Positions 1,969 to 62,804 of a stretch of DNA of 64,000 bases are shown here, one piece after another. The DNA is taken from the NCBI GenBank assembly GCA_964645605.1, contig CAZYCE010000003.1, positions 57,135 to 121,134 of the forward strand. The letters run 5' to 3'. The stretch is from an uncultured Gammaproteobacteria bacterium. Lineage in GTDB: Bacteria > Patescibacteriota > Microgenomatia > UBA8517. Positions within the stretch are counted from its first letter, which is position 1; every line of letters begins with the position of its first letter. The notes under the pieces are model-generated. The model was given only the letters and a program-made list of their open reading frames with translations, made no database searches and was not told the origin of the DNA. A program made the position numbers and the translations under genes.

Positions 1969-3793
1969 TTAATTGGGAAACGTTCCCCATGGCAATAGGA
2001 TCCAAGTGGGGAAAGTTGTCGAATTTCAGTTCATCCAAAAACTGGTCAAGGTTTGCGGTTGCAGCGGCAACGTAGGTATCACTTCCTCCGTAATAAACAA
2101 TTAGGGTGTTATCAATTACCACGGCACCGCAAGGGTAAACGACACCCTGTTTGAATCCTCCGTTTTCATAATAAGTTTCCGGTTCCAATAAGGGATGGGA
2201 CGAGCGGTACAAAACCTTTGACGGGTCATTGATATCTAAAAGCATCGCCCCAATTTTGTAACGGCCGTTATCTTGAAATCCAACCGCTTGATAAATTGCC
2301 AACCAACCGTCTTTGGTTCTTATTGGCGGAGGACCCATTCCGATTTTATTGCTGTCCCAAAAATCCGGTCGGGGATGGATTTGGTAAGTCCCTTTAAGCC
2401 AGATGTTTTTCCCGTCGAAATCATCAAGACTGTCCACCATGTCGATTAAAATGTCGGGGTAGATTCTATGAAAAACCACATATTTTCCGTTTATTTTTTC
2501 GGGAAGAATACAGGCATTCTTATCAACTACACCGGGCGGGGAAATAACCATGGGATCGCTCCAGCCCGTCCAATTTTGCTTCTCAAAATCCCTAGTGGTG
2601 ATATAGCTCAAAGCTACTCTTGGCGGGTTTTTACCGTCGTAGGCGACGTAGGTAAGATAAAACTTATCATCAATTTTCGTAATCCTGGGGTCTTCAATTC
2701 CGCCGTAGCCTCCGCCCCCGGACTCGTACGGTGAAAACTTGAGCGCTTTTCCGTATGACGGATGCTCAAATACCGCACGCGGAATGTAGGCCGGTCCGGA
2801 ACTCCTGAAATCGATATTTAATCCGTCATGGCTCACGGCATATCCCAAAACCGAAGTGTCGTGGTCTCCGATGGCTCTATACAAAAGATGAACAGCATTG
2901 TTGTGATAAATTGCGGCTGCATTAAACACCTGTTTTGATTCCCATGTTTTGTCATCCCTGGGCGAAAGAATCGGATTTCCGATGCTTCTTACAAGCTTTG
3001 CGTGAGGAAGAGGCGACTTTGCATCGGCGTATTTTTGCAAGTTATTGTGATCTACGACAAAGATGCCCTTGCCGGGCAGTTCCCAATACGAATAAAAAGT
3101 GTCGTTAAGATCCACAATTCCAACCGGCCTGACATGCATGTTTATCCACTCTTGAGGTTGATACCAAATTGCCCGGTCTGTCTTCCAAAGGATGTTTGTA
3201 GGATCTTTCGGGTCAAGAAGAACGGACCAGACGGAGTAATGGTTGTGGTCATCATGTTTTTCGTTTAGAAAATAGATTAGATGCGGTCCGTCTTTAGCCT
3301 CCTTAACACACCCGACGGTGTAATCTTTTTGAGGAACATCCATTTCTTTGATATTCCAGTTTTTTCCGTCCTCACTGAAACCTACGGATAGTTTTTTTTC
3401 GCCAAAAAAGATAACTTGCTGACCCTTATGTGTAAAATATGGAAGCTCCACTGCCGGAGTTGTGATGGGGAAAAGCCGCCCCTTGTTTTGCCACGAAGAA
3501 AAATCAAGCGATGTAGCATGATTTAAATAAGCTTTTCCTTCAAAGCTTGACAGATAAAATAAATTGTAAATATCTTGGGTTTTGGTAAACCTAAAAGAGG
3601 AAACATTCTCTATCTCTTCCCGTTTCCCGTCAGATTCAATAAAGGCTCCGCTTGCCAGCCGTACAAAAGTTTTTCCGTCTTTGCTGTAATCTATGTTAAA
3701 TTCATCGGATTTACTGCCTTCTGATTGATAGCACACAAAGATTTTCTCATCCAACGCAAAAACTCCCAATATTTTTAAATGGGCAGAACGCAT
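1952..3793 (-). CDS. GH130-like glycosidase paralogue (C-terminal GH130 domain, N-terminal unassigned propeller-like domain)
   Basis: The C-terminal half carries GNPILSPRDDKTWESKQVFNAAAI...GGIEDPRITKIDDKFYLTYVAYDG, parallel to the upstream gene. It overlaps the neighbouring gene's start by 17 nt. Confidence 0.45.
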   Translation of the reverse strand: MRSAHLKILGVFALDEKIFVCYQSEGSKSDEFNIDYSKDGKTFVRLASGAFIESDGKREEIENVSSFRFTKTQDIYNLFYLSSFEGKAYLNHATSLDFSSWQNKGRLFPITTPAVELPYFTHKGQQVIFFGEKKLSVGFSEDGKNWNIKEMDVPQKDYTVGCVKEAKDGPHLIYFLNEKHDDHNHYSVWSVLLDPKDPTNILWKTDRAIWYQPQEWINMHVRPVGIVDLNDTFYSYWELPGKGIFVVDHNNLQKYADAKSPLPHAKLVRSIGNPILSPRDDKTWESKQVFNAAAIYHNNAVHLLYRAIGDHDTSVLGYAVSHDGLNIDFRSSGPAYIPRAVFEHPSYGKALKFSPYESGGGGYGGIEDPRITKIDDKFYLTYVAYDGKNPPRVALSYITTRDFEKQNWTGWSDPMVISPPGVVDKNACILPEKINGKYVVFHRIYPDILIDMVDSLDDFDGKNIWLKGTYQIHPRPDFWDSNKIGMGPPPIRTKDGWLAIYQAVGFQDNGRYKIGAMLLDINDPSKVLYRSSHPLLEPETYYENGGFKQGVVYPCGAVVIDNTLIVYYGGSDTYVAAATANLDQFLDELKFDNFPHLDPIAMGNVSQLNAETN

Positions 3794-24069: not shown

Positions 24070-24612
24070 TCAATTACCTGGTTTTAGTACAAGGTGATGG
24101 GTTTCATATTCAAATAACACAGGGTCTTGCAGATTAAATAACTCTTTGATAATGAGTATCGCAAAATTCGCAGCTTTGGTATAATTCTCGTGGAAATTTA
24201 TACTTACATCTATTTTGCCTTTCCCAAAGTTTCTTCTTCCTATTGCCGACTCTTCAATATTTGATTTTTTTATTAATTTAGAAAGTTCCTTACTTTTTCT
24301 TTCATATTCGTTCTCCTTCCAAGCCGGAACGATAAGATAAATATCCACTCCGCTTCTCATGAACTGAACCCCAACGTTTCTGTAGTCATCAAAAATGAAA
24401 ATAACAAATGAGCGGTTTGGCAAATGTTTTAGGGCAAATTTGATAAAAGGGAAAGTCGAATCGCTTTTAAACGACATTTTATGGCTCCAGTAGTAAAAAA
24501 GTCTCCATGAATAAATCTTCTGCCAAGTTCTAAATACTGAACCCCAGAAATCAAATTCAATAACAACTTCTACTCCTAAAATTTTCTTCTTAAAAATAAA
24601 GGGTGAAAACAT
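24070..24612 (-). CDS. hypothetical protein
   Basis: ORF only. No motif was recognised. Confidence 0.3.
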   Translation of the reverse strand: MFSPFIFKKKILGVEVVIEFDFWGSVFRTWQKIYSWRLFYYWSHKMSFKSDSTFPFIKFALKHLPNRSFVIFIFDDYRNVGVQFMRSGVDIYLIVPAWKENEYERKSKELSKLIKKSNIEESAIGRRNFGKGKIDVSINFHENYTKAANFAILIIKELFNLQDPVLFEYETHHLVLKPGN

Positions 24613-24624
24613 TGAAAAATTATA

Positions 24625-25908
24625 TTATTCATAGAACCAATCCCATCCGGGGTTGTCTACTTCAACAATTTTACTTTTTAACATTTTATAAACCCCGTCT
24701 TCCAAAACAGTTTTCCATGTTCCTTCGTAATAATGATCCTCAACCTCACCGTCTACCCAGTTTTTGGTGGAGAATTTTACAAATGCGGTATCTTTTGTAT
24801 TTTCGAACCTCTCCGATTTAATAATATCGACGTCAAGAATATCGGTAAACCTGCCGGTCCACTCTTCAAAATTGGTTTTCTGTAAGTATTCCGTACTAAG
24901 AAGATTGAATCCGTCTTCCATTCTTCTTGCCTTAAGATATGTATAGAAAGCATAAACAGCATCCTCGGGGGATTTTGAAGGATCAACCTGAATTTTTGCT
25001 ATATCGTTATCGGTGAAGTTGGGAATCAAAGTTGAAATATTCTGAGCCCCTATAAATAGGGACAGACCTGCAACTCCCATTGTGTTTACCCCGACAAGGC
25101 TTCCGCATTGGTCAACAAGGGGTCCGCCGCTCATTCCGGGAACAAGACTCATATTTGTTTGGACATACCCGATCGGGTCTTTCCTGGAGGTTCTGTAATC
25201 TATGAAGTTTCCTTTAACTACGGTAGCGTTGCCTACCATATCGGTACCCAGCGCATACCCTGCAGAGATAAGCGGCTCATTGTCGTAAAATCCAAGCTCC
25301 TCGGGTAGGGAATATACGAAATCGGGATATTTGCCGTCGATAAATAGCAGTGCAAGGTCCGTATTTTTATCCCCGATAATTTTCGTAGGAGTCACAATCG
25401 TTCCTTCAGCCAAAATAATTTTTGGACTTGGTTCACCGGCAATCACATGGAAATTTGTTAATACCTGATTTTCACTTATAAAGAATCCCGACCCTTCCAT
25501 ATAACTTCCTTCAATTCTGACAACGGATTTTTTAAGTTTATCCGTTGTCGCGGGACCGCAGAAAATTTTTGCGAATGATCCGTATTGTTTTCTTAAATAA
25601 TCGGCAATTACCACTAGCGAAAAGAAGAGATAGATGATGATAACTACGTACACAATAGATTTCAAAAAGTTTTTGAGGCTTTTGAAAGGATATTTAATGC
25701 AGTCGATGATAAGCCCGATAATGGCAAGGATTAGTTTTATCAAAAACTTGATTAGGTAGTAAAGGGTATAGGTTATAAACTTGATGGGGAAGAGGTAAAT
25801 GGGAAAAAGAAGTTTTTTAAAATAAGCCTTAAGCCTTGAAGTAATATTTTTAAATTTAGACTTAATTTTCCCGGCCAGTCTTTCAAAAATGTCCATGTTA
25901 TTTTTCAA
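24625..25908 (-). CDS. membrane-anchored trypsin-like (S1) serine protease with unassigned C-terminal domain
   Basis: TM helices in the first ~100 aa. Catalytic triad context TNFHVIAG, DLALL and GMSGGPLV. Confidence 0.7.
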   Translation of the reverse strand: MKNNMDIFERLAGKIKSKFKNITSRLKAYFKKLLFPIYLFPIKFITYTLYYLIKFLIKLILAIIGLIIDCIKYPFKSLKNFLKSIVYVVIIIYLFFSLVVIADYLRKQYGSFAKIFCGPATTDKLKKSVVRIEGSYMEGSGFFISENQVLTNFHVIAGEPSPKIILAEGTIVTPTKIIGDKNTDLALLFIDGKYPDFVYSLPEELGFYDNEPLISAGYALGTDMVGNATVVKGNFIDYRTSRKDPIGYVQTNMSLVPGMSGGPLVDQCGSLVGVNTMGVAGLSLFIGAQNISTLIPNFTDNDIAKIQVDPSKSPEDAVYAFYTYLKARRMEDGFNLLSTEYLQKTNFEEWTGRFTDILDVDIIKSERFENTKDTAFVKFSTKNWVDGEVEDHYYEGTWKTVLEDGVYKMLKSKIVEVDNPGWDWFYE

Positions 25909-26653
25909 ATTTTCTTATCGCTTTTCTGTAATTGCAAAAATCGCAATCTTCCCCGGACTCCGGTAGTTTATCCGACTTAAGGCACTCAATAGCTTCTTGA
26001 ACTGTTCCATCCACCCAAGAATCATCCCCTTTATAGGGAATAATTTTAATATCAAACTCAAGTTTTCCGTCAAAAGCCTTTTTGTCTGTTTTTCCGTTGC
26101 AGTAAACAAAGTAGCCTGTTTTTGAAACATCATAACCGTTTTTTCTAAACAGCCATTGGTATATCTCCATTTGCCTTTTATATCCTTTCTGCCAATCGGC
26201 ATCCAAGTTTACTTCATCCTCTTTGGAAGTGGCTTTGTAGTCCACGATAATAAACTCACCCTTGGGATTAACCCAAACATCATCAACCCCTCCGGCTATT
26301 ACGACATTTGTTCCCGGAACATTATATGTAACCCCTCTCTTCATGGAATCCCTCCATTCGTCAATTTTTTCATGAGCGAGGGGAATTGCATCAATTCCGT
26401 ATGTTTCCATTAATGGGTGTTTTGTCCCGTTGGCTCTATGAATGTCAAATTCCTTCTTGAGAAGCTTATCTACGGCGGAGTTAAGCGAAAAAGGATATCC
26501 GGGCGGTTGGGCAACACCAAGTTTCCTATCGAGGTAAAAACAGCGGGGACATTTGATAAAATCATCAACCTTCCCTCGGCTCAATCTAAATGGTGCTTTT
26601 GAATCAGAATCATAAAGCCTCGTTAAACGGTTTGGGTTGTAATATTCACTCAT
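25898..26653 (-). CDS. Cas4-like / RecB-family PD-(D/E)XK nuclease with 4-Cys Fe-S cluster
   Basis: N-terminal CPRCFY and C-terminal CDFC cysteines. GGVDDVWV (motif II), IVDYKAT (D/ExK) and QMEIYQWL (QxxxY). No CRISPR array lies nearby. Confidence 0.6.
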   Translation of the reverse strand: MSEYYNPNRLTRLYDSDSKAPFRLSRGKVDDFIKCPRCFYLDRKLGVAQPPGYPFSLNSAVDKLLKKEFDIHRANGTKHPLMETYGIDAIPLAHEKIDEWRDSMKRGVTYNVPGTNVVIAGGVDDVWVNPKGEFIIVDYKATSKEDEVNLDADWQKGYKRQMEIYQWLFRKNGYDVSKTGYFVYCNGKTDKKAFDGKLEFDIKIIPYKGDDSWVDGTVQEAIECLKSDKLPESGEDCDFCNYRKAIRKFEK

Positions 26654-26680
26654 ATTTATCTTCGGTTACAGTAAGAAGTG

Positions 26681-26872
26681 TCATTTAATTCTTCCTGGAT
26701 CTCCTTTATTTATGTCATGAACAACCCTCTTAACGTAATCATTAATCCATACGTCAATATAGCTTATTGAACTCCCCTTTTTACTTTTGGGTTTGTTCTG
26801 AATATTCTTTATTTTATTTTCAATATTTTTCATCATATTTGTTTTTTTGTTGGGATTATAATACTGTGACAT
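26681..26872 (-). CDS. small hypothetical protein; its N-terminus (MSQYYNPNKK) parallels the downstream nuclease (MSEYYNPNRL)
   Basis: ORF plus the shared N-terminal motif. It may be a duplicated gene-start remnant. Confidence 0.25.
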   Translation of the reverse strand: MSQYYNPNKKTNMMKNIENKIKNIQNKPKSKKGSSISYIDVWINDYVKRVVHDINKGDPGRIK

Positions 26873-27624
26873 CAGGATTCGGTAAACTTGTCTATGACAA
26901 TCTCGGATAAAATATTAAAATATAATAATTCTTTCTGGGTTAATTCATCATTGTGTTGAATTTTATTTCTGTACAAGGCAAGTTCCCGAAGGTGATACTT
27001 ATATTGCAGCGCTTCATCACGGTCTATAAATAGATCGGAAAACATTTCCATGTTTTCCCTGAATATTTTGAAAAAATCCATAATTCCTGCAGCGGATAGC
27101 ACGTCGGATGGATTAGAATAATCAGGCCTCATATGAATATTTCTTTCGTAAATACCAACCAAATCCAAACGGATAGGTTCTGGTATGTGAAGTAACCAAT
27201 GTGTTGAATATCTAACCATGAAATGACTACAAAATGAATTTCTTAATACAGTTTCGAGTGTTGCAATATTCTTTCTGGCAGTTTCGAGAAGAATCAGGTC
27301 TTTTAAATTTAAATTTTTGGGTTTTGTTTTGGAGACGATTATGGCATCCTCACCAGGGTTTCTTATAGACCACCTTATTCCCCCAGACATGAGGACTCTC
27401 TTTTTAAGTAATCCCTTATTTCCCATCTGAATAATAGAGCTTTTTACCCTTCTCTTCATGTTTCCGTACGTTCTTTCTACTCCAAAAACCTTTTTCGCAA
27501 CCGCCGTCACAAGACTTGATTCGTCTCTTTCCCGACCTTCGGAAATTTCCAATAAAATTGCATCCTTAAACGACATCTTCATTCTTTTCATTCTTCTTTT
27601 CCGTGCTTTTCTTTTTTTAATCAT
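26872..27624 (-). CDS. basic N-terminal DNA-binding-like domain protein with C-terminal HEPN-type Rx4H motif
   Basis: N-terminal KRKARKRRMKRMK basic tract. C-terminal ALYRNKIQHN (R-x4-H) in a predicted helical segment. Confidence 0.35.
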   Translation of the reverse strand: MIKKRKARKRRMKRMKMSFKDAILLEISEGRERDESSLVTAVAKKVFGVERTYGNMKRRVKSSIIQMGNKGLLKKRVLMSGGIRWSIRNPGEDAIIVSKTKPKNLNLKDLILLETARKNIATLETVLRNSFCSHFMVRYSTHWLLHIPEPIRLDLVGIYERNIHMRPDYSNPSDVLSAAGIMDFFKIFRENMEMFSDLFIDRDEALQYKYHLRELALYRNKIQHNDELTQKELLYFNILSEIVIDKFTES

Positions 27625-27632
27625 CTATTATT

Positions 27633-28028
27633 TTAGCCAATTTCCTCTTTAATTTTGTTTATACAAAATTGTAAGTTGTCATATATATCGGTTTCCCAAA
27701 AACGAAAGACTTTCCACCCATCTTTTTTTAATTCGTTATTCACTTTTTTATCCCTTTCCATGTTAATTCTGATTTTTTCTTTCCAGAATTTATTGTAATT
27801 GGGTGCTTCCTTGCTATAGTTTCTTCCATGCCAAAAATCACCGTCGCAGAAAATAACAATTTTACTGTCTATTATGACCATATCCGGTTTTCCCGGAAGC
27901 GGAAAATTTTTTTCAAATCCAATTCCCGAAGTATTCAAAGCGGCACCCAGCATTAATTCAATATCCGTATCCTTATTTCTCACCTTTGCCATTAACTCCT
28001 TTCTTTTTTTAATGGAAATTCTATCCAT
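27633..28028 (-). CDS. vsr: very-short-patch repair endonuclease
   Basis: LPGKPDMVIIDSKIVIFCDGDFWHG...WKEKIRINMERD...GWKVFRFWE, the full Vsr signature. Confidence 0.85.
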   Translation of the reverse strand: MDRISIKKRKELMAKVRNKDTDIELMLGAALNTSGIGFEKNFPLPGKPDMVIIDSKIVIFCDGDFWHGRNYSKEAPNYNKFWKEKIRINMERDKKVNNELKKDGWKVFRFWETDIYDNLQFCINKIKEEIG

Positions 28029-28029
28029 A

Positions 28030-29064
28030 TTACTGATTATTATTTATGGTCTTAATTATATTGGCCGCAATTGCTTCAATAACGGGAATTGCCACACTAT
28101 TACCGATCTGTTTCATCCTTTGGTTGGGCGACAGCTGATCAGGAAATTTGAAGTTACTCGGAAAGCCCATCATTGATTTTGCCTCGTCAACGGTGAGTTG
28201 ATGAGGTTTTCTTTTTTTGGAATTCTTTTCGAAGAATAAATAAGAATCCCATGTTCTTTTATCGTTTACCCAAATTTTATTGTCATCGACTCTGATATAA
28301 GAATCGTCTGGCGTTTTGTGTTTATCTAGCCAATTGTTACTTTTATATGCCGAGCCTACACCACCCAACCTAATTGTTCTTCCGACACGATTGGGCCAAC
28401 CCAATCGTGTTATGTCTGACGAGTCCCACTCTTCGTTCAAGTTTTTAAAGAATTCTGATAAGGTAACAGGTTCTTCATGCGTCGGCTTCGGCCACCACGA
28501 ATCATCAGGAGCCGCGCGTAAAACATCTTCCCTAAAACCGACCATGTACACTCTATCTCTTTTTGTGGGGAGTCCAAATTGTGAAGCCTTATAGGTGTGG
28601 ATAGAAATTGGATAACCCGCACTTTTCATTTCGCTTTTAATAAAATCGATTAGTTTGCCGTTGTTTCCATTGGGAATATTAAGTAAGTTTCTGACATTTT
28701 CCAAAAATACGGCTTTTGGTTTTTTTTCGCGAACAATCTGAACAATATATTGGAAAAGTGTTCCTCTGTGATCATCAACTCCTCTTTTTTTACCGACAAC
28801 ACTAAAAGGTTGGCATGGAAATCCCGCACAAACAATATCTATACCTGTGGGGATGCCTCTTCTTACAACGGGATCTTTTATATCACCAAGGAGCTTCGTT
28901 CCTTTAAAGTTTTTTGAATATGTCAAACTCGCTTTATCGTCGATATCTACTGCAAGTACGCATTCTGAGGGTATTCTAAGTTTTTCTGAGGACTGTTTTA
29001 TTCCCAAATGAAATCCACCAATTCCGGAAAAAAGATCAACGAATTGTAATTTGTTCTTTCTCAT
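28030..29064 (-). CDS. dcm: DNA (cytosine-5)-methyltransferase
   Basis: Motif I FVDLFSGIGGFHLG, motif IV GFPCQPFS, ENV motif VI (FLENVRNL) and C-terminal GNSV. Confidence 0.9.
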   Translation of the reverse strand: MRKNKLQFVDLFSGIGGFHLGIKQSSEKLRIPSECVLAVDIDDKASLTYSKNFKGTKLLGDIKDPVVRRGIPTGIDIVCAGFPCQPFSVVGKKRGVDDHRGTLFQYIVQIVREKKPKAVFLENVRNLLNIPNGNNGKLIDFIKSEMKSAGYPISIHTYKASQFGLPTKRDRVYMVGFREDVLRAAPDDSWWPKPTHEEPVTLSEFFKNLNEEWDSSDITRLGWPNRVGRTIRLGGVGSAYKSNNWLDKHKTPDDSYIRVDDNKIWVNDKRTWDSYLFFEKNSKKRKPHQLTVDEAKSMMGFPSNFKFPDQLSPNQRMKQIGNSVAIPVIEAIAANIIKTINNNQ

Positions 29065-29076
29065 GCAAACACCGTT

Positions 29077-29826
29077 TCAACTTAGCTTAGAGAGAAAATC
29101 ACGGCAACCATCAAGTAACTGTCGCATTTGGATGTCACTCATCGAAGAGAGTATTTTATATGATCCGTAATAGTTAAGTTTTTTCATTAATTCACGATAC
29201 TTAAGTTCCCTGCCTGGTTCAAATAATTTAGGGTTGTCCTTCTCAAAATCCAAAATTGAGCTAATCATTTTTTTGTTTTTTCCCTGATATCCTGAATAAA
29301 TTGTCCTTGTTTGATCCAAGTCACGAAAGGCTAATCGCGATAATTCATAAGGGTCACGTCTTTTATTGTCAAAGGTTAAATAAATAATCCACCAAAGTTT
29401 TGAGATCTCATTTCTCATCAAGTCGTTTGCAGAACTATTTTCTACAAACCAATGAGTTAAGACGTGGTTAACCAACTGTTCATTAGTTTTGTGGCTCGAA
29501 GGAACAGGGCTTCTTTTTTGCATATAGTTCCAAAATACCGTGTGTGAAAGACATGACCAAATCCTTGGATCTGTTGCATAATCTGGCTTTAATCCGTGAA
29601 TTTTTTCAAAAAGAATTTTGCCGTTCTCAAACTCGAATTGAGTTTTGTCTTTACCCTCTGGCTCAAGGAGTTTGATATCGTCATCAATGGTAACTGTGGG
29701 GTGTTCCCAAACGCATTCCTCTTTTATCGGAAATGAACTAGCCGAATAAAGGGGCAATGATTTGGAATTTTTCACTGCATCTTTGAGCTCCACCAAGTAG
29801 GCGTTTGTAAAAAGTTTAAGTTTCAT
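29077..29826 (-). CDS. hypothetical protein (candidate cognate nuclease/effector)
   Basis: ORF translationally coupled to dcm. No motif was recognised. Confidence 0.3.
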   Translation of the reverse strand: MKLKLFTNAYLVELKDAVKNSKSLPLYSASSFPIKEECVWEHPTVTIDDDIKLLEPEGKDKTQFEFENGKILFEKIHGLKPDYATDPRIWSCLSHTVFWNYMQKRSPVPSSHKTNEQLVNHVLTHWFVENSSANDLMRNEISKLWWIIYLTFDNKRRDPYELSRLAFRDLDQTRTIYSGYQGKNKKMISSILDFEKDNPKLFEPGRELKYRELMKKLNYYGSYKILSSMSDIQMRQLLDGCRDFLSKLS

Positions 29827-30739
29827 TATATTGTTCGTTTATGCTTTCCTTAGTTGTGAGGGGAATAAGGCCCTCAATACTTATTAATTGCCTTGAAAAA
29901 GGAAGCCTCATTATTAATTGTGAAATTCTTGGTATATCTACAACTTGAAAATCTAAAGAGTCTGTTTCTTCGTTGTAGTAAATAGATAATTTCTCATCTC
30001 TTTTAATCTTGTGTTTAAGCATTTTATACCACGTATATTTTGGTTGTTCTGAGGATTGGTTTATGTATGCCAATATATAATTCAAAACTGGAAATACTAA
30101 CGAACTATGATAAATTGCCGGAATAAATTGATTTCTTCCAAAATAATCGAATTTTTTATGATCTTCGTGGGTCATATAAATTATTATTTTCTGGTTATCA
30201 AAACCGATTTCGAGTGGTTCCGCCTTTCCACCATTTGGATTGTCTACTACAACAAAAAAATTTTTAACTAATTTTGTTGATTGGAAAATTTTCTCCGCCC
30301 AAAAAATTTTTTCATTTGTAAAAGCTAAAATATCACCCGCATCTAAATCAAAACCGTTATCCAAATACTCATCATTAAAATTAGGGCTTTTATATTGGGC
30401 AATAGATGCTGTCGCTACGATAAAAAACTGAATTGCTACCTCCTCCGAAACATCATCCGCAGAGATCATAATTTCTTGAGTTTCACTCTTACTGTTGTAT
30501 GTGCTTCTGTAAATTGTACTTTCACACTGTATATCGACACAAAAACAAGCCTTATCATCTTGTATTAATTTTTCAATTGTCCTCTCAGCAAGATGGTGTT
30601 TGATCTTAAAATTATAAAAATGACCCCCATCTTTTTCTGTTATACTCGTTGCAACCATCCCAACATCATATTCTCCAGCAATGTCGCCCTCCCTTCCTAA
30701 AACTGGATATGGATATGATTTATTAGTCAATATTTTCAT
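29816..30739 (-). CDS. hypothetical protein
   Basis: ORF overlapping both neighbours. No motif was recognised. Confidence 0.3.
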   Translation of the reverse strand: MKILTNKSYPYPVLGREGDIAGEYDVGMVATSITEKDGGHFYNFKIKHHLAERTIEKLIQDDKACFCVDIQCESTIYRSTYNSKSETQEIMISADDVSEEVAIQFFIVATASIAQYKSPNFNDEYLDNGFDLDAGDILAFTNEKIFWAEKIFQSTKLVKNFFVVVDNPNGGKAEPLEIGFDNQKIIIYMTHEDHKKFDYFGRNQFIPAIYHSSLVFPVLNYILAYINQSSEQPKYTWYKMLKHKIKRDEKLSIYYNEETDSLDFQVVDIPRISQLIMRLPFSRQLISIEGLIPLTTKESINEQYNET

Positions 30740-32735
30740 ATTTTGCCTTTAGTCCTAAAGAGTATTTTTCATTGCTTTCAAAATATACAATCAGTTTAAC
30801 TTTTCCTTCATTGTCCGTAACAATATTATGAATTATATTGCCGTTAGTTATTAATGACTTCCCGGATATTTCTTCTGCGCCTGAAATTATTGGTGAGTTA
30901 TAGTCTATGCCGCTTTCGGTACCCCAGCCCAATATTAAATCCAATTTTTTATATTCCTGAAGGTCTAAGTTAATGTTGTATTTCCATTCACCATTTTTAC
31001 TCTTCGTTGCGAATGATCTAAAATCAGCATTCTTTAAGACAACCTCTTCACCTGAATGATTTTCATTACCCCCGTAGCCGTGACCGTGACCGTGGCCGCC
31101 TTCACGAATTAATACACCATTTTTCCCTTTTACACCCATCGTTGACACTGGAATAGTAACTACTGTTCGCCTTTCGAGCTTTTCAATTTCATGAATGTCG
31201 CCGGTGGCTCTGAGTGCGGTTTCTTCATCTGTTGGTTCACCGAATCCTGAATTCTCCATTGATGTGTCAAAACCTGCAAACTCATCGGGATTTTCTATCC
31301 CCAGCATGTCTTCCATTTCGGGTATTTCGCTTTCTTTAACAGATATAGTTTTACCTATCTCTCCCATAAAATCACTAACAAAGTCACGGAGTTCAACTTC
31401 TGCCGCCTCCGCCATCCGTTTTACCTGATCACTTTCTCCTGGTTTAACATAACTTGCCTTCCATTCATTGTGGGGGGCGTTTTCCATTTTGCGTAAAATT
31501 ATATTTCCCTCTCTACTCTCACATACGAATACAGCTGCAAATTTTTGAGGAAAAGCAAATACTTTATTCATAACCACCATTCCGTTATTCCTAACAAATT
31601 GAATTTTATTCTGGAAATCATTATTAAAGGAATAATACATTTTTAAATCGCCAAGAATTGTTGTCTTTTTCATGTACGGTTTTTCTTTATGTTCTGTATA
31701 TGCCCAGAGGTACGGAAAAGGATTCGGTCTAGTTTTGGTATCTGGTTTGTAAGTATCAAAAATCCCAGTTAAGCTTTTACCTAAATTATCCTTATTAACA
31801 ATAATGTCTTCAATTTGAACTTCCAAAAGTCCATCTTGAATTGCTTTCCAAAAATTGTACAGAATTTTTGTTGTCATCAGTTTTTTCCAGAAACCGCTAT
31901 CATCGAAATCGACAACATAAATATCTGTTCCTTGTTTTTCATCTAACCTCCGGAACATATATGGAATCTGATTCTTGGTACGAACCGGTTCCTGATTTTT
32001 TAAACCAAATGATCCACTACCTTGTTTCTTTTTGTTGTTAAAAATATGTGTATTTAAATCTAATAGGCCCCCAAAAACATATTTGTCTGTGTCAAAAATG
32101 CTGGAGTAAAAAAGAGTTCTAAATCCAGATAAATTATAAAAAGAAGCTTTTCCAAGACCCCACGAGCCACCACTTGTTTCACCTTTATTTGTTGATCCCT
32201 CTGTTTTAGCGAAACAGTAGAAATTGCTCTCGAGATATTTGGGGTCATTGGGGTCGCCACTCAAGCCCTGCGTATTATAATCACTAATTTTCAAAATTTT
32301 AATAAATTCATTTTTGGTAATCTTGTCTATGGCATCACCGTAAAATTTCTTTACATTCGGGTCGCGATAATATTCTTGACAAGCCTGGAATATGGATTTT
32401 AGTTGATCTGGGTTGGGAATTTCTTTCGCTTTTATTTTTAATAACTCGAATTTGGCAATTGCAGGGCCTTCCACGTTTTCGTCTTTAGCATCGAGTATGT
32501 TTTGAATAGCTTCTCTGGCCAAAGATTGTCTGGGGTCTTCTAAGAAATTAGATCCAAGAGGCGCATTAAATCCGTCATCTCTTCCATGTCCCAGATCTTC
32601 GAATTCGTAATTTAAATCAGCCATTTTATAATTGGAATTTAACTTTCTTTGTATAAGTAAATTTGGATTTTGCGTTATTTTTTGCCCCATCGATTGCGGT
32701 AAATATCTTTTGAATTTCGGAATCAGTATAATCAT
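30723..32735 (-). CDS. GHKL (Bergerat-fold, HATPase_c) ATPase, MORC/paraMORC-like
   Basis: N-box SLAREAIQNILDA and G2 box GGSWGLGKASF. The likely true start is MADLNYE at about 32624, 1 nt after the stop of the upstream 79-aa ORF. A GHGHGHGYGG low-complexity tract lies in the C-terminal third. Confidence 0.55.
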   Translation of the reverse strand: MIILIPKFKRYLPQSMGQKITQNPNLLIQRKLNSNYKMADLNYEFEDLGHGRDDGFNAPLGSNFLEDPRQSLAREAIQNILDAKDENVEGPAIAKFELLKIKAKEIPNPDQLKSIFQACQEYYRDPNVKKFYGDAIDKITKNEFIKILKISDYNTQGLSGDPNDPKYLESNFYCFAKTEGSTNKGETSGGSWGLGKASFYNLSGFRTLFYSSIFDTDKYVFGGLLDLNTHIFNNKKKQGSGSFGLKNQEPVRTKNQIPYMFRRLDEKQGTDIYVVDFDDSGFWKKLMTTKILYNFWKAIQDGLLEVQIEDIIVNKDNLGKSLTGIFDTYKPDTKTRPNPFPYLWAYTEHKEKPYMKKTTILGDLKMYYSFNNDFQNKIQFVRNNGMVVMNKVFAFPQKFAAVFVCESREGNIILRKMENAPHNEWKASYVKPGESDQVKRMAEAAEVELRDFVSDFMGEIGKTISVKESEIPEMEDMLGIENPDEFAGFDTSMENSGFGEPTDEETALRATGDIHEIEKLERRTVVTIPVSTMGVKGKNGVLIREGGHGHGHGYGGNENHSGEEVVLKNADFRSFATKSKNGEWKYNINLDLQEYKKLDLILGWGTESGIDYNSPIISGAEEISGKSLITNGNIIHNIVTDNEGKVKLIVYFESNEKYSLGLKAKYENID

Positions 32736-32865
32736 ACGAGCTTCTGTTGGATAAATTTCCCAACAACCGCAGGTCGTTTAAAATACGATTTACCCTTCGG
32801 GTTGCCAATCTTTCAAATCTTTGGTGTCTTGTTTCCGACATGTCTATTATATGGGATACTATCAC
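32626..32865 (-). CDS. small basic protein, possible DNA-binding partner of the ATPase
   Basis: 79-aa ORF whose stop abuts the inferred ATPase start. RFERLATRRVNRILNDL helix. Confidence 0.3.
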   Translation of the reverse strand: MIVSHIIDMSETRHQRFERLATRRVNRILNDLRLLGNLSNRSSYDYTDSEIQKIFTAIDGAKNNAKSKFTYTKKVKFQL

Positions 32866-32930
32866 TAAATATAGTATTTGTCAATAGTTATATACATATT
32901 TAATCTACAGAGTATATTTAACAACTTAAA

Positions 32931-33791
32931 TCAACCTAATCCAAACTTTTCTTTTAATGAAGATTCTTGTATTAAATATTTAAAGAATTCCTCAACTTGT
33001 TCAATTCTTACAATTTTAATGAATGGTCTTAGCTCGTGAAAAGTGCCGGAAAGAAGTTCGCTTACTTTCTCGAAATTGACACTATCTACAACTATGAATG
33101 GCTCACTATTCCATAGATCAAATGCATGTTTTAGTTTTGACAATGCCTGATGTGGACTTCCACCAATCTGAACTTCAAAAACTTTAGTCGGAACCCCTCG
33201 TGGGACTCTACGCCATGCAACATCCAATCTTTCACTATCAATCCCGTATTCTTTTTCACTTATAAAATGTTCCATTTGACCGATTTCCGTAAGTTTGTCC
33301 CTAATTTGATTATGTAAAGAAAGCTCGGGAGTCACCGTTTTTATTGGAATCTCCAGTTTGACGGCGTTGATAGTCAAATTGAGTTTGTCCGAAAGCCTGG
33401 CCATTAACTCTTTAACAACTTCTTCCTTACTAACGGGGTTAACTCCCGCCTGTAGACTTAACGATAAGTCATTTACGGCAACGGCGCTTTCTTGCCATTT
33501 TTCGGGAGAAAGAACACCCAAAATTTGAAAATCAAAACGGTACGGATAAATAACACTCTTCGCTCTAATCTCATCGGGCCAGAGCGGTTTATCTTGCTTA
33601 AACTTAGACTCAAGCTTACCGAGACCAATTAACCCTTTTATTGGAGATTTTGCGTAAAAAAGAAGATAATCACCCCTTTCGAGCTTTTTCCATCTGGAGA
33701 CAAGACCACCTTCCCGAACTCCCCAAATATTGCCGTTATTAAATGCCGTTTCCCAATTTTCTTCGTTGCCAGTCAGTATCCAAACTCTCAT
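32931..33791 (-). CDS. EVE/PUA-like domain protein with possible C-terminal nuclease domain (candidate modification-dependent restriction enzyme)
   Basis: N-terminal MRVWILTGNEENWETAFNNGNIWGVREGG...GDYLLFYAKSP matches the EVE fold. The C-terminal D..(VFEVQ)..K spacing is weakly PD-(D/E)XK-like. Confidence 0.45.
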   Translation of the reverse strand: MRVWILTGNEENWETAFNNGNIWGVREGGLVSRWKKLERGDYLLFYAKSPIKGLIGLGKLESKFKQDKPLWPDEIRAKSVIYPYRFDFQILGVLSPEKWQESAVAVNDLSLSLQAGVNPVSKEEVVKELMARLSDKLNLTINAVKLEIPIKTVTPELSLHNQIRDKLTEIGQMEHFISEKEYGIDSERLDVAWRRVPRGVPTKVFEVQIGGSPHQALSKLKHAFDLWNSEPFIVVDSVNFEKVSELLSGTFHELRPFIKIVRIEQVEEFFKYLIQESSLKEKFGLG

Positions 33792-33866
33792 TCTTGCCTA
33801 TTTTAGCACTATTTTATTTCAAAGGCTTAATATACCTACAACAAGACAATTGGCCAACTCTTATGT

Positions 33867-34289
33867 TTAGTTGGCAGCCCCGCTAGGCTGCAAGCGCACA
33901 AAACCGCATTTTTCCCCGTCGCTCAATCCGACGATGGTCAGGCGGGAAAAAAATTCCTCCCAAGTCTTTCCTACCGTTTTAAGAAGCACAAAGGTTCCGT
34001 TTACAACCTTAAGCCCTTCCCAATGGTCCAGGCATTTAGTTATGACCACAATATTTTCCGGATTATAGATATTCCTGTAAACCATGTTTTTTTCATCAGA
34101 TTTTCCGTTATAAGTATCAAGATCTGGTTCATAAAGCGCCGTAGCGGACATATTGACCCCTTGCTCTCTATAAAAATTAGCAAAAAGTATGTTGAGAGGA
34201 AACTCGGACAGCTCCGGCTTGCCCTCGATCTCAAGTTTTTTTGGGACAAACCCGAATCCCTGCGTTTGGTTATTATTTACTTCCATCAT
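33867..34289 (-). CDS. hypothetical protein
   Basis: ORF only. Confidence 0.3.
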   Translation of the reverse strand: MMEVNNNQTQGFGFVPKKLEIEGKPELSEFPLNILFANFYREQGVNMSATALYEPDLDTYNGKSDEKNMVYRNIYNPENIVVITKCLDHWEGLKVVNGTFVLLKTVGKTWEEFFSRLTIVGLSDGEKCGFVRLQPSGAAN

Positions 34290-34518
34290 TTTTAATCACC
34301 TCCCTTCTTTACCAACAAAAAACCTCTCCGAAAGAGAGGTTTGAAAAAAACATTGCCAGTAAAAAATCGGCCAAATCTTTCCCTTTCGGGCTGGATTTAG
34401 CACCGTAATAAAAAACTTTTTACCCGGTTGCTGAGTGGATCAACGGGCCAGTGCCCTAACCACTACTCTAGATTTTTTGCCTTATGAGGTAATTATAATA
34501 CCAATTCTTCAAATTCTT

Positions 34519-34538
34519 CAAGGTATTTTTTTACCTTG
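34519..34538. promoter_or_regulatory. palindrome CAAGGTA-T7-TACCTTG
   Basis: Dyad related to the CAAGGTG-N-CACCTTG motif. A further half-site ttCAAGGTA lies at 34552. Confidence 0.35.
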
Positions 34539-38575: not shown

Positions 38576-38857
38576 CTAACTCCAAGTTGTCAGAAAGTAG
38601 CGGATATATTCCGATTGTCTGACACCGTCTAAATGGCTTTGGATTACCTCAGTTGTGAGCAGTAATGGTTTTTTGTTAGTATAATCACTGAATTTACCTC
38701 CTTTTGCCTTAAATTTGTTGTATTCAGTCCAGTCCACTTCGTATACTGGACTGTAACCGCTTTTTCCGTCTTTTTCCCAACGTCGGGCGTAAACATCATT
38801 TCTACCTCTGAAAAGAGATATAAATAGTTGGATTTGATCAAAAGTAGTTTTACCCAT
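38576..38857 (-). CDS. hypothetical ORF / possible gene fragment
   Basis: Two overlapping minus-strand ORFs in different frames in a 627-nt gap. This may be a frameshifted remnant. Confidence 0.2.
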   Translation of the reverse strand: MGKTTFDQIQLFISLFRGRNDVYARRWEKDGKSGYSPVYEVDWTEYNKFKAKGGKFSDYTNKKPLLLTTEVIQSHLDGVRQSEYIRYFLTTWS

Positions 38858-38972
38858 TGTCTATATGCCTGATTGTACCAAACGGTATCACTTTTCCCAT
38901 TTGGGCTTATGGCTTTGGAAAAATTCGGAAAGTGGCACTTGACAAAAAGTAGCACTTTCTGTAAAGTTATAG

Positions 38973-40157
38973 TTGCATATGTTCTACAGGCGCAAAATTT
39001 ACACAGAGCTTTTTTCTCACGCTCAAACTTCTCTCGTAACAGTCCTTACAGGCATGAGAAGGACCGGTAAAACTACCCTAATTCAGCAGCTTCTTTTGGA
39101 TATTCCCAACAAAAACTCGCTTTATCTTGATTTACAACGTCCCGATAATCGTGAGCTTTTCAATCAAAAGAACTATGAAGCAATCCGGGAAGCGTTTATT
39201 GCCAGAGGAATATCTGCTGAAGAGCCAATGGTCATAGCTCTAGACGAAATCCAATTAGCGCCGGAAAGTCCAAGTGCAATCAAATATCTATCAGATCACC
39301 ATAAAATCAAATTTATTGTTACTGGATCAAGTTCATATTATCTCAAAAATTTGTTTTCCGAATCTCTGTCCGGAAGAAAAAAGCTCTTTGAATTATACCC
39401 ATTAGACTTTGGAGAGTTTTTAACTTTTAAAAATATTTCTTTTTCTCAAACTAATTGGTCAAAGGGAACATTTAATGTTTCGGAGTTTAACCGTCTTTCT
39501 TCATATTACGAAGAATACGTCCGTTTTGGAGGTTTCCCCCAAGTGGTGCTTGCGGAGTCTGAGAACGATAAACGGGATTTGTTGTCAGATATTATGTCAT
39601 CTTATGTAAATATTGACATTCGCTCACTTGCTGACTTTTCAGATGAACGCAATTTGTATTCACTTGCCAAGCTTTTAGCCGAAAGAATTGGTAGTAGAGT
39701 GGAGTATTCCAAGTTATCGAGACTTACGGGAATATCCCGCCCAACTGTTACTAATTATATCTCTTTTTTTGAGAAGACTTATTTAATTAACACTATTCCT
39801 GTTTATACAAAAAGTGTTGATAGAGAAATCGTAAAATCCAGAAAACTTTATTTTTGCGATACTGGGCTTGCTAACATTCTGGCGGAACTTTCGAGCGGAG
39901 CCCAATTTGAAAATACCCTTTTTAATCAACTAGCCAGAATTGGACGAGTTCAATATTTTGCTCTCAAAACTGGGCATGAAATTGATTTTATATTAAATGA
40001 AGATCTGGCAATTGAAGTAAAAGAAACCCCTTTGGAAAATGATCTAACACATTTATCTCACATGGCAACCAGGGCCAAAGTACCAAACTTCAAACTTGTT
40101 GGGAGGTATCAATCTCCAAAGTTTACAAATTATGCGTGGGCAGGGTCAATATTGTAA
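38973..40157 (+). CDS. AAA-family ATPase (AAA_14 + DUF4143 architecture)
   Basis: Walker A GMRRTGKTT, Walker B IALDEIQ, and the C-terminal DUF4143-like region. Confidence 0.7.
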   Translation: MHMFYRRKIYTELFSHAQTSLVTVLTGMRRTGKTTLIQQLLLDIPNKNSLYLDLQRPDNRELFNQKNYEAIREAFIARGISAEEPMVIALDEIQLAPESPSAIKYLSDHHKIKFIVTGSSSYYLKNLFSESLSGRKKLFELYPLDFGEFLTFKNISFSQTNWSKGTFNVSEFNRLSSYYEEYVRFGGFPQVVLAESENDKRDLLSDIMSSYVNIDIRSLADFSDERNLYSLAKLLAERIGSRVEYSKLSRLTGISRPTVTNYISFFEKTYLINTIPVYTKSVDREIVKSRKLYFCDTGLANILAELSSGAQFENTLFNQLARIGRVQYFALKTGHEIDFILNEDLAIEVKETPLENDLTHLSHMATRAKVPNFKLVGRYQSPKFTNYAWAGSIL

Positions 40158-60365: not shown

Positions 60366-62804
60366 ATGGCAAAAGAAATTGCACCCGTTAAAGACGCGTC
60401 ACGAAGAGTGTTGATTGTTCCGGTTAGGGGATCGGTCGTTTTTCCCCATACGGACACGCTTGTTTCCTTCGGTAGAGCAAAAAGCGTGGCAGCCGTAAAC
60501 TCGGCATTCCAGGATGATCGTGTGATAGCCATCTTTTCCCAAAAGGACCCTCGAACGGCGGATCCCGTAGAGGATGATCTTAATACGATTGGTACAATCG
60601 CGACCATCACTCAAATGATGGCCACGGAAGGTGAAATACATGCACTCATACGTGGGCAGGCCAGGATTGAACTTAAGGAGATTATTTCGGATGAGCCGTA
60701 TCTTGTCGGCAAGGTAAAAGAAGTAACGGAAGAGCTGGAGGACAGTCCGGAGATTGGCGTTTTGGCAAAAAAAATTCAGGAGCTTTTCAAAAAAGCCATC
60801 AACCTAGGTAAACAGGCGGAAATAATGACCGTGATGAAGCTTGTTTCGGGCAACGTTGAACCGATCGAGGTAAGTGATCAAGTAGCCTCACTTTTGGATA
60901 TAAAACCGGCCGAGAAACAAAAGATTTTGGAGGAAATAAACGTTAAAAAAAGACTGAGAGTTGTTTTGGACTACCTGAGCAAAGAGATTAACGCACTAGA
61001 GGTTGAGCAGACAATTTCTTCAAAAACCCAAAAGAGATTTGAGGATCAAATGAAAAAAGCCATGCTTCGTGAGAAGAAAAGAACTATTGAGGAAGAACTG
61101 GGTGAAATGGATGAGGAGGGGGAAATCAGCAGCGAAGAGTTTAAGGAATATAAAACAAAAATTAAAGTTGCCGGCATGCCGCCCGATGTAAAAGACCGGG
61201 CGGAAAAAGAACTCAAGCGTTTAAGCGAAATGTCTCCGAATAACCCCGAGGGGGCTTATATCAGAAATTACCTGGACTGGCTTTGCGATGTGCCTTGGAG
61301 TAAAGAATCTCCCAATAATGTTGCCATGAGTAAAGCCTCAAAAATTTTGGAAGACGAGCATTACGGAATTGAAAAAGCAAAAGAGCGTATTTTGGAGTTT
61401 CTGGCAGTAATGAAACTCAAAAAAGAAGAAAAAAAACAAAAAAAAGGCACGTCTGAAGCTCACCCCACAATTTTGTGTTTCATAGGTCCTCCCGGGGTCG
61501 GCAAAACTTCTATAGGCCGTTCCATTGCCAAAGCCCTAAACCGCAAGTTTGTCCGTGTATCTTTGGGTGGTATCAGGGATGAAGCCGAAATCAGAGGACA
61601 TAGGAGAACTTATGTAGGGGCCATGCCCGGCAGGATTATTCAGGGAATGAAGACGGCTGGCACAAAAAACCCCGTTTTTATGCTTGATGAAATAGATAAG
61701 GTGGGAGTTGATTTTAGGGGAGATCCTTCAAGTGCCCTTTTGGAGGCATTGGATCCCGAGCAGAATAAAGAATTCTCCGACCATTATCTTGAAGTCCCAT
61801 TTGATCTTTCCGAAGTTATGTTTATATGTACCGGAAATGTGCTTGATACAATTCCTGCACCTCTTCGTGACAGGATGGAAGTAATTACATTCCCCGGCTA
61901 TACCGAAGAAGAAAAGTTTCAGATTGCCAAGAAATTCCTTTGGCCAAAGCAGGTTGAGGCCCAGGGTTTATCTAAACTAAACATAAAAATTTCAGATTCA
62001 GGAATCAGGGAGGTAATTGAAAGTTACACAAGAGAGGCGGGAGTTAGAAATTTGGAAAGAAATCTGGCCAGTGTTTGTAGAAAGGTCGCCAGACTTGTGG
62101 CTGAAAAGAAAAAATATCCAAAAATGATTGAGAAAGCGGATGTCAGGAAATTTTTGGGAAATCAAAGATTTTCCTCCCAAATTGCGGAAAAGAAAGATGA
62201 AATCGGAATGAGTACGGGTCTTTCGGTAACTCCATTCGGAGGGGAAATTCTTTTTATAGAAGTCTCTTTAATGCCCGGAAAGGGTAGGCTGACTCTCACG
62301 GGACAGCTGGGGGATGTTATGAAGGAGTCGGCAAAAGCGGCTTTCACTTGGACAAGATCGCATTATCACGAGCTTGGCCTTAGACCGGATTTTGCGGAAA
62401 ACATAGATGTCCATATACATGTTCCCGAGGGTGCGGTCCAGAAAGACGGTCCTTCGGCGGGCGTTGCGATTACCACCGCTCTTGTTTCAGCACTAACCGG
62501 CATTCCCGTAAAGCGCCATGTGGGTATGACCGGTGAAGTTACCCTAAGAGGAAGGGTTTTGGAAATAGGGGGTTTGAAGGACAAATCCATTGCCGGTCAT
62601 CGAGCCGGACTTACGACAATAATTGCCCCTAAAGAAAACAAAAAAGACTTGGACGACATTCCCGTGCAGGTTAAAAAGGATATTAAATTTGTATTTGCGG
62701 AAGAAGTGGAAGACGTATTGCGGGTTGCTTTTACAGGATGGCCACCCAAAACCATAATTAAAAAAGATTTTTCTCCTATTTCCGCCACGCTCGTGGCTAA
62801 TTAA
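60366..62804 (+). CDS. lon: ATP-dependent Lon protease
   Basis: Walker A GPPGVGKTS, the sensor region, and the catalytic DGPSAG serine / K dyad context. Confidence 0.9.
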   Translation: MAKEIAPVKDASRRVLIVPVRGSVVFPHTDTLVSFGRAKSVAAVNSAFQDDRVIAIFSQKDPRTADPVEDDLNTIGTIATITQMMATEGEIHALIRGQARIELKEIISDEPYLVGKVKEVTEELEDSPEIGVLAKKIQELFKKAINLGKQAEIMTVMKLVSGNVEPIEVSDQVASLLDIKPAEKQKILEEINVKKRLRVVLDYLSKEINALEVEQTISSKTQKRFEDQMKKAMLREKKRTIEEELGEMDEEGEISSEEFKEYKTKIKVAGMPPDVKDRAEKELKRLSEMSPNNPEGAYIRNYLDWLCDVPWSKESPNNVAMSKASKILEDEHYGIEKAKERILEFLAVMKLKKEEKKQKKGTSEAHPTILCFIGPPGVGKTSIGRSIAKALNRKFVRVSLGGIRDEAEIRGHRRTYVGAMPGRIIQGMKTAGTKNPVFMLDEIDKVGVDFRGDPSSALLEALDPEQNKEFSDHYLEVPFDLSEVMFICTGNVLDTIPAPLRDRMEVITFPGYTEEEKFQIAKKFLWPKQVEAQGLSKLNIKISDSGIREVIESYTREAGVRNLERNLASVCRKVARLVAEKKKYPKMIEKADVRKFLGNQRFSSQIAEKKDEIGMSTGLSVTPFGGEILFIEVSLMPGKGRLTLTGQLGDVMKESAKAAFTWTRSHYHELGLRPDFAENIDVHIHVPEGAVQKDGPSAGVAITTALVSALTGIPVKRHVGMTGEVTLRGRVLEIGGLKDKSIAGHRAGLTTIIAPKENKKDLDDIPVQVKKDIKFVFAEEVEDVLRVAFTGWPPKTIIKKDFSPISATLVAN

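Follow-up and report, generated by a model that had tools for sequence, protein, structure and literature searches.

What does it mean when a protein that may cut modified DNA is encoded beside a methylase that makes modified DNA? The question arises from a first-pass annotation of the window (the whole stretch of DNA analysed here, 64,000 nucleotides in length), which described an EVE-domain protein next to an operon encoding a Dcm C5-methylase and proposed a modification-dependent nuclease whose coexistence with that methylase would call for distinct specificities or a regulatory role. Here we examine that protein, referred to below as EVE-REase, together with its family and its neighbours (Table 1). 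We consider it on balance probable that EVE-REase is a type IV-like restriction endonuclease, encoded by one gene and dependent on DNA modification but not on NTP. It appears to be an autonomous unit, neither the restriction partner nor the regulatory partner of the adjacent Dcm.

Table 1. Positions of the features discussed, numbered from the first letter of the window.
Feature	Position	Strand	Details
EVE-REase gene	32931..33791	-	ATG-started ORF, 286 aa plus stop codon
N-terminal EVE/YTH-type PUA-like sensor	33420..33791	-	residues 1-124
EVE-REase linker	33324..33419	-	helix 123-137, then flexible segment 143-156, pLDDT <50 (DSSP + pLDDT)
C-terminal restriction-endonuclease-like (PD-(D/E)XK fold) domain	32934..33323	-	residues 157-286
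Putative catalytic core	33129..33251	-	E181 ... D190-x15-E206-V-Q208 ... K221, translation checked
EVE gene promoter candidate, weak, sigma-70-like	33829..33857	-	TTGGCC-17-TATATT, 9/12, consensus scan only
up140, 140-aa ORF	33867..34289	-	ends 75 nt before EVE start codon
Terminator hairpin after riboswitch	34320..34342	-	ahead of up140
SAM-I riboswitch aptamer	34370..34478	-	RF00162 45.3 bits vs gathering score 44.4, E=1.6e-8
Promoter, sigma-70-like, ahead of up140	34492..34521	-	consensus scan
Separate operon, outside EVE unit	27633..32884	-	promoter, leader, PDC-M33A/B/C, Dcm, Vsr
Operon promoter	32856..32884	-	TTGACA-17-TAGTAT, extended TG, sigma-70-like, 10/12
71-aa leader gene	32626..32841	-	start = M9 of 79-aa ORF as called
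PDC-M33A, GHKL-type ATPase	32624 (probable ATG) to 30723	-	PADLOC E 2e-91
PDC-M33B	29816..30739	-	PADLOC E 3e-53
PDC-M33C/DUF6339	29077..29826	-	PADLOC E 4e-42
Dcm C5-methylase	28030..29064	-	Pfam PF00145, E=3e-73
Vsr	27633..28028	-	Pfam Vsr

A conserved two-domain family

Among 5.8 billion proteins searched, EVE-REase has 524 homologues at E<=1e-3, nearly all of them full-length at ~285 aa (280-300), and an alignment of 37 diverse members holds 43 invariant columns, with both halves of the protein conserved. These figures rule out a chance ORF and establish a real two-domain family. An AlphaFold2 model built on the family alignment (mean pLDDT 86.7, pTM 0.74) contains a sole disordered stretch, residues 143-156 between the domains, and the linker is likewise the most variable and most gapped part of the alignment.

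The sensor domain

That the gene encodes an EVE-domain protein, as the first-pass annotation had it, is borne out by a Pfam EVE (PF01878) match over residues 3-124, which scores 27.1 bits where the gathering threshold is 23 (E=4.6e-6) and covers profile positions 2-138 of 145, and independently by Foldseek. A match to NCBIfam PRK00809/UPF0310 spans residues 1-93. In fold comparison the sensor is a PUA-like beta-barrel which can be superposed on solved EVE/YTH structures. The hallmark motifs W23-G24-V25 and G40-D41...F45-Y46 are present, and in the 37-member alignment the aromatic residues W4, W13, W34, F88 and W99 are invariant while W71 is nearly so. W23, V25 and Y82/Y84 may form the pocket for a flipped base; this putative assignment equates them, by residue numbering, with the P24/W82/Y130 pocket of the EVE-HNH enzyme VcaM4I (PMC7897488). 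A lack of EVE pocket residues had been named in the first-pass annotation as a ground against the proposal, and the motifs and invariant aromatics, an indirect check, did not show such a lack.

The fold does not point to one ligand. In fold comparison, YTH domains, which read m6A in RNA, score as well against the EVE-REase sensor as do the DNA-binding EVE domains for 5mC, and the base read may be 5mC/5hmC or m6A, the two being indistinguishable here.

The nuclease-fold domain

The C-terminal half had been called weakly PD-(D/E)XK-like, and the absence of a nuclease fold there had been named as grounds for abandoning the proposal. Fold comparison instead found a restriction-endonuclease fold with conserved acidic residues, and the initial impression is strengthened accordingly. 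The leading matches (fold-comparison scores in brackets) are NucS (9.2), AF1548 (8.9), YaeQ, BamHI (7.8) and NgoMIV (7.7), followed by BstYI, OkrAI and FokI (7.5), BglII (7.3) and Can2; among the nuclease folds, the top scores belong to DNA endonucleases. The model runs from a helix (159-173) through strands at 177-184, 187-194 and 203-208 to a second helix (213-227) and a final strand (230-235), an order which identifies the alpha-beta-beta-beta-alpha-beta core of PD-(D/E)XK enzymes. It places E181 on the first strand, D190 on the second, E206 on the third and K221 on the helix that follows.

This identity is recoverable through fold comparison only, and not through sequence annotation. Residues 157-286 have no Pfam match even at E<=10, one spurious match aside, their profile yields zero sequence matches in the PDB, and neither PADLOC nor PHROG contains a match to the domain.

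D190, E206, W193 and H160 are invariant and E181 nearly so, with Q or H at position 208 and K or R at position 221, a pattern which persists when the domain is joined to other sensors; the columns invariant across architectures are H160, G171, D190, W193, F205, E206, V207, L220, A223 and W227. The usual lysine of the (D/E)xK motif is occupied by Q208 in EVE-REase. Glutamine in place of the motif lysine, with a basic residue on the following helix, is an arrangement known in BglII. The Q/H at position 208 could represent a BglII-like variant, or it could signify altered or absent catalysis.

Re-use of the nuclease domain with other sensors

The profile of residues 157-286, run against 1.84 billion cluster representatives, recovered 588 clusters. 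Most of these are EVE fusions of ~290 aa, but the domain is also placed behind MrcB_N (PF12102; P0388), HARE-HTH (PF05066; P0366) and DUF1802 (P0280), precedes DUF5655 (P0336), and occurs as a stand-alone protein. MrcB_N and HARE-HTH are sensor modules tied to DNA modification or restriction. EVE-REase thus combines, in one polypeptide, a modification sensor with a nuclease fold which is common to other sensor types. Such exchange of sensors on a constant nuclease is the signature of modification-dependent restriction, and it provides the strongest argument for a DNA-directed and catalytically active module.

We infer nuclease activity, a dependence on modification and a DNA rather than an RNA target. 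A conserved aromatic pocket of the EVE/YTH-type domain would take up a modified base flipped from the DNA. The helical and flexible linker would join this sensor to the C-terminal PD-(D/E)XK-fold domain, and cleavage close by would rely on metal bound by E181, D190, E206, Q208 and K221. By likeness to VcaM4I, the enzyme would probably act as a dimer.

A different target would be RNA. EVE-REase might read an m6A or m5C ribonucleotide and either employ its PD-(D/E)XK fold as an RNase or serve as a reader of RNA modification, in housekeeping or RNA quality control, and the YTH-like sensor, the high conservation of the family and the housekeeping synteny described below are consistent with this. 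The fusion of the same nuclease domain to the DNA-directed McrB-N and HARE-HTH sensors argues against it, as do the DNA endonucleases heading the list of fold matches and a distribution which is patchy and not universal. We regard an RNA-directed role as unlikely.

Distribution and genomic neighbourhood

The carriers of EVE-REase are scattered over ~20 bacterial and archaeal lineages, and its homologues are seen only in metagenome-assembled genomes of uncultivated lineages (CPR, DPANN, Asgard, Dehalococcoidia and others). The bacterial carriers include CPR, Dehalococcoidia, Acidobacteriota, Omnitrophota and Planctomycetota, and the archaeal carriers include Hadarchaeota, Bathyarchaeia, Aenigmatarchaeota, Asgard and Thermoplasmatota. 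Bacterial and archaeal members share 45% identity, unusually high for a defence gene. The family has no match among PLSDB plasmids, INPHARED phages or IMG/VR contigs, and is absent from the PADLOC models; like the high conservation, this counts against a restriction enzyme.

We collected 72 loci encoding homologues. When 531 ORFs flanking the gene in 70 of them were clustered, no conserved partner emerged, no family being present in more than eight loci. The most frequent neighbour is an N6_N4 DNA methylase, found within 4 kb in 8/70 loci, mostly in convergent orientation and in a lineage-specific manner. Several loci are set among toxin-antitoxin, KAP-NTPase and PDDEXK genes. The closest homologues (90% and 84% identity) adjoin a glyoxalase and a PCMT-like methyltransferase, and a PIF1-like helicase.

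One lineage departs from this variability. In the Dehalococcoidia, EVE-REase keeps a stable position, flanked by SecA/PRPP synthetase and by Pol X, and these surroundings, suggestive of housekeeping or repair, count against the restriction reading. Together with the fold match to NucS, this Pol X neighbourhood invites comparison with DNA-repair endonucleases of the NucS/EndoMS kind, in which case the target of the PUA-like domain would be base damage or a non-canonical base in place of an epigenetic mark. The synteny is confined to that single lineage, the remaining contexts being variable and often of defence or toxin-antitoxin character; the family is far too sporadically distributed for core repair, and the swapping of McrB-N and HARE-HTH sensors is typical of restriction enzymes. 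A repair function consequently strikes us as quite improbable.

In the window, EVE-REase sits in a defence island. The island is supported by the genes near EVE-REase, among them a trypsin-like protease, a Cas4-like PDDEXK_1 gene, a PDC-S01 ATPase and a PrimPol fragment. The Lon protease of the window shares 85% identity with that of Candidatus Microgenomates, and is similarly close to those of Woesebacteria and other Patescibacteria, which assigns the window to a CPR (Microgenomates-like) bacterium.

The adjacent methylase operon

The first-pass annotation had placed the EVE protein next to the methylase and immediately upstream of its operon. The orientation holds, EVE-REase being upstream of the Dcm operon on the same strand, but the description is loose, as dcm itself lies four genes and ~3.9 kb further on. 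Dcm belongs to a separate operon comprising a leader gene, PDC-M33A, PDC-M33B, PDC-M33C, Dcm and Vsr. This operon has a strong promoter of its own, placed between the end of the EVE gene and the leader and kept in M33 loci which lack EVE. No terminator was detected after the EVE gene ahead of the leader operon, and transcripts may read through from the one into the other. The start of PDC-M33A is probably the ATG at 32624, one base past the leader stop codon. Literature searches on PDC-M33, DUF6339 and PH1033/UPF0310 returned nothing useful.

The 79-aa ORF at 32626..32865 was considered as a partner of EVE-REase and rejected. It is really a 71-aa leader, mostly found without EVE; in 80 metagenomic loci this leader heads GHKL-ATPase operons of many kinds, and stop and start codons usually overlap at the junction.

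The target of Dcm cannot be inferred from M.HhaI or M.HaeIII, since it aligns to either over its catalytic half only. The amino-methylase motif IV ([DNS]PP[YFW]) is absent from all ORF segments of 120 aa or more across the 64 kb, which leaves Dcm as the sole DNA methylase candidate of the window.

Comparison of loci lends no support to a functional or regulatory tie between EVE-REase and Dcm. A tblastn search with M33A/B/C, Dcm and Vsr found none of these genes in the 72 EVE loci, the window's own contig excepted; the 90% and 84% identical homologues reside in unrelated contexts; and the Dcm operon is self-contained, with its own promoter. The string leader-M33A-M33B-M33C-Dcm recurs without EVE in four loci (L074, L075, L081 and L142), in three of which Vsr is included, and the operon of L074 adjoins a terminase and a ParB-methylase.

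A broader form of this association deserves separate consideration, in which EVE-REase would serve the leader-PDC-M33-Dcm-Vsr system, or leader-led GHKL-ATPase defence operons as a whole, by acting as a second nuclease, a specificity factor or a regulator. The EVE and leader genes are co-stranded and only 89 nt apart. The EVE gene lies directly upstream of four types of leader-led GHKL operon (those of the window, L002/L003, L011=L124 and L131), and within the clade of at least 60% identity such an operon accompanies it in 4/8 contexts examined, or in 4/10 when L158 and L159 are counted. Moreover, L002 and L131 have a common intergenic sequence between EVE and leader, with different genes downstream. 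Against this stand the absence of M33A/B/C, Dcm and Vsr noted above (0/72) and the reciprocal count, EVE being found in only 2/44 leader loci having enough upstream sequence. The four M33-Dcm operons just listed are complete without EVE, and the operon promoter is conserved in loci without it. The leader protein tracks the downstream operon and not EVE, being 80% identical to that of L074 and 51% identical to that of L002, and the two closest EVE homologues possess neither neighbour. Membership of EVE-REase in these systems is thus very unlikely, and its position beside the Dcm operon looks like the crowding of a defence island, not a functional partnership. Because Dcm is part of the separate PDC-M33 operon, the pairing of methylase and methyl-reader is only apparent.

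Least probable of all is a catalytically dead reader which only binds modified nucleic acid, for instance in regulation or recruitment. In its favour, position 208 carries Q or H instead of K and no curated nuclease family is matched by sequence. Across more than 500 proteins of several architectures, however, D190 and E206 never vary, E181 hardly does and K/R221 is conserved, which argues for a preserved active site, and ExQ/ExE variants of the motif are active in BglII and BamHI.

Compatibility with self-methylation

If EVE-REase is a modification-dependent endonuclease, how it would spare DNA methylated by Dcm is a legitimate question, yet it poses no paradox. The E. coli K-12 genome carries dcm and vsr alongside the 5mC-dependent McrBC and Mrr, a combination tolerated through differing sequence contexts. 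The K-12 set of dcm-vsr with McrBC, Mrr and McrA resembles the present arrangement in joining the production of 5mC to modification-dependent nucleases, of which EVE-REase is a probable one, but here the Dcm operon and EVE-REase stand side by side. One system directed against unmodified DNA beside another directed against modified DNA is a common layout of defence islands. Furthermore, as m6A-reading YTH domains match the sensor as well as 5mC-binding EVE domains do, a conflict with Dcm is not established.

Relation to known systems

The EVE-PD(D/E)XK architecture has previously been predicted to represent type IV restriction (Bell et al. 2020, BMC Biol, PMC7641849), and EVE-REase is a new member of that predicted class. 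It shares with the class an N-terminal EVE domain and a C-terminal PD-(D/E)XK domain encoded by a single gene in bacteria and archaea. The likeness is one of architecture, as the class is a bioinformatic prediction without a characterised member and the nuclease domain described here matches no Pfam PD-(D/E)XK model.

The nearest characterised enzymes are more distant. VcaM4I and TspA15I are EVE-HNH modification-dependent endonucleases (PMC7897488, PMC6765204); their catalytic domain is HNH where that of EVE-REase is PD-(D/E)XK, and sensor identity is only 11-13%. YenY4I (EVE-DUF3427-PD-(D/E)XK; PMC6765204) likewise couples a sensor of the PUA superfamily to a PD-(D/E)XK nuclease, but has an intervening DUF3427 and lies in a prophage with methylases, whereas EVE-REase lacks DUF3427 and has a much shorter linker. 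The archaeal EVE-like proteins PH1033 and MJECL36 (UPF0310; PDB 1WMM and 2P5D) are, unlike EVE-REase, single-domain proteins with no nuclease. BglII, BamHI and NucS, although matched in fold, have no detectable sequence homology to the nuclease domain. BglII and BamHI read specific unmodified sequences and NucS reads mismatches, and none of the three has an EVE sensor. A published survey places a DNA methylase within 3 kb of fewer than 6% of PUA-nuclease ORFs, usually as part of another system (PMC6765204), a figure with which the absence of a C5-methylase from our loci (0/72) agrees.

Several consequences follow. Firstly, if active, EVE-REase would give the EVE-PD-(D/E)XK class, so far predicted and uncharacterised, its first tractable member; enzymes of the EVE-nuclease kind are useful as epigenetic tools, and this one would show how the DNA of phages infecting CPR bacteria is modified. 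Secondly, the nuclease domain is a compact module without a curated model, yet one re-used with EVE, McrB-N and HARE-HTH sensors. Thirdly, the reading of the locus is corrected: Dcm resides in a separate candidate defence operon (PDC-M33), and its juxtaposition with a methyl-reader reflects the island, not a new regulatory design.

An upstream riboswitch cassette

Upstream of the EVE gene lies a cassette composed of a SAM-I riboswitch (fold z-score of the region -3.3) and the short ORF up140. The 75-nt spacer between up140 and the EVE gene contains the weak promoter candidate of Table 1 and a 7-bp hairpin whose tail is T-rich, but no canonical terminator. As the riboswitch-up140 cassette is absent from all EVE-REase homologue loci, its position next to the EVE gene is a local juxtaposition, though a suggestive one. 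At low probability, the riboswitch may also gate the nuclease by read-through, such that expression would respond to falling SAM.

On that reading, the cassette could act as a SAM-depletion 'guard' which turns on a back-up nuclease, or an anti- or pro-restriction factor, and its trigger could be a phage SAM lyase draining SAM, or failed host methylation. Our literature search found no paper linking SAM riboswitches to anti-phage defence. The adjacency of riboswitch, orphan gene and nuclease is a cheap and testable lead towards metabolite-gated defence.

The up140 protein is itself rare, with three homologues besides itself among 5.8 billion proteins, and its model is confident while its fold is without any match. 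A SAM-I riboswitch precedes every up140 homologue with available DNA (49.5 and 62.2 bits). The gene after the riboswitch-up140 cassette is of nuclease or restriction type in 3/4 contexts, the three being independent of one another and the first of them that of EVE-REase. A PDDEXK_1/Cas4-like gene follows up140 by 22 nt in L154, with no terminator between them, and this is the sole context in which co-transcription of cassette and nuclease looks likely. In L156 the gene after the cassette is HsdR-like, with a terminator intervening, and in the fourth context a TPR protein is encoded downstream.

The Dcm-Vsr operon and its leader gene

Downstream of the EVE-REase gene, which encodes an EVE sensor with a PD-(D/E)XK-fold domain, lies a separate and conserved operon of six genes in the order leader, M33A, M33B, M33C, Dcm and Vsr. 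PDC-M33 is a PADLOC candidate system in which A is a GHKL ATPase and C a DUF6339 protein; its occurrence within a conserved operon alongside Dcm and Vsr suggests a methylation-linked, restriction-modification-like candidate defence system. In metagenomic locus L074, the operon has a terminase gene and a gene for a ParB-methylase as neighbours.

The leader protein carries a conserved motif, LR(I/L)LGNLSN...YDY, and drew no annotation from Pfam, PADLOC or PHROG; it may be a regulator or a small subunit. Its called reading frame begins at a GTG, eight codons too early, while that of M33A (start 32735) is probably 37 codons too long, with the true start at 32624. In most cases the leader stop codon overlaps the ATPase start. 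Across groundwater and sediment metagenomes, the leader gene opens a wide variety of defence-type operons built around a GHKL ATPase.

Four distinct kinds of leader-led GHKL operon lie directly downstream of close EVE-REase homologues (60-72% identity). In loci L002 and L131, the same EVE-leader intergenic sequence is followed by different downstream genes, a pattern suggestive of cassettes being exchanged behind a conserved junction. A minority of loci show this arrangement: two of 44 leader loci, and four of the ten contexts of the close EVE clade.

Features of the window and of homologous metagenomic loci (L-numbers; own coordinates)
Feature	Position	Strand	Remarks
Four co-oriented genes just downstream of vsr	24070..27624	-	
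250-aa unknown	within 24070..27624	-	weak PDC-M34B match
Trypsin-like protease	24625..25908	-	weak LmuA and RT-protease matches
PDDEXK_1/Cas4-like nuclease	25898..26653	-	
180-aa unknown	within 24070..27624	-	
PDC-M33-containing operon	27633..32884	-	also L074, L075, L081, L142
Leader, 71 aa	32626..32841	-	counterparts in L074-L153
EVE-leader junctions	32842..32930; L002 8859..8989; L011 3536..3648; L131 about 2332..2468		
up140, very rare 140-aa protein, fold unknown	33867..34289	-	under SAM-I riboswitch control
SAM-I riboswitch with terminator	34320..34521	-	ahead of up140
Riboswitch-up140 counterparts	L154 5816..6423; L156 3124..3692		
AEP/PrimPol-type primase fragment (93 aa) and adjoining AAA_14/DUF4143 ATPase	38576..40157		
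Lon protease	60366..62804	+	
DUF6804 gene	L158 2987..3289; L159 2757..3056; L156 989..1291		

The riboswitch cassette and other contexts of EVE-REase homologues

The pairing of riboswitch and up140, the gene upstream of the EVE-REase gene, is kept in every up140 homologue locus for which DNA was available. Directly downstream of this cassette, three of four contexts feature a nuclease or restriction gene, namely EVE-REase, a PDDEXK_1/Cas4-like gene and an HsdR-like gene.

In Dehalococcoidia (L019, L021, L037, L043, L047, L056), the EVE-REase homologue is syntenic: PRPP synthetase/SecA flanks it at one end, and a 70-aa ORF together with a Pol X-family polymerase at the opposite end. Such a setting is housekeeping or repair-like, in contrast to the variable contexts elsewhere. 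Both the closest EVE-REase homologues and one up140 homologue have a DUF6804 gene nearby, which probably reflects shared synteny of related CPR genomes rather than function.

Host genome and island edges

The Lon protease of the window shares 85% identity with that of Candidatus Microgenomates and is similarly close to that of Woesebacteria, placing the window in a CPR/Patescibacteria genome. That so reduced a genome should combine a multi-system defence island with a SAM riboswitch is notable. The four genes past vsr may form another defence module of the same island. At its other edge, the primase fragment, likely a pseudogene remnant, lies beside an ATPase matching PADLOC PDC-S01 (E 6e-66), a juxtaposition which hints at a decayed mobile element.
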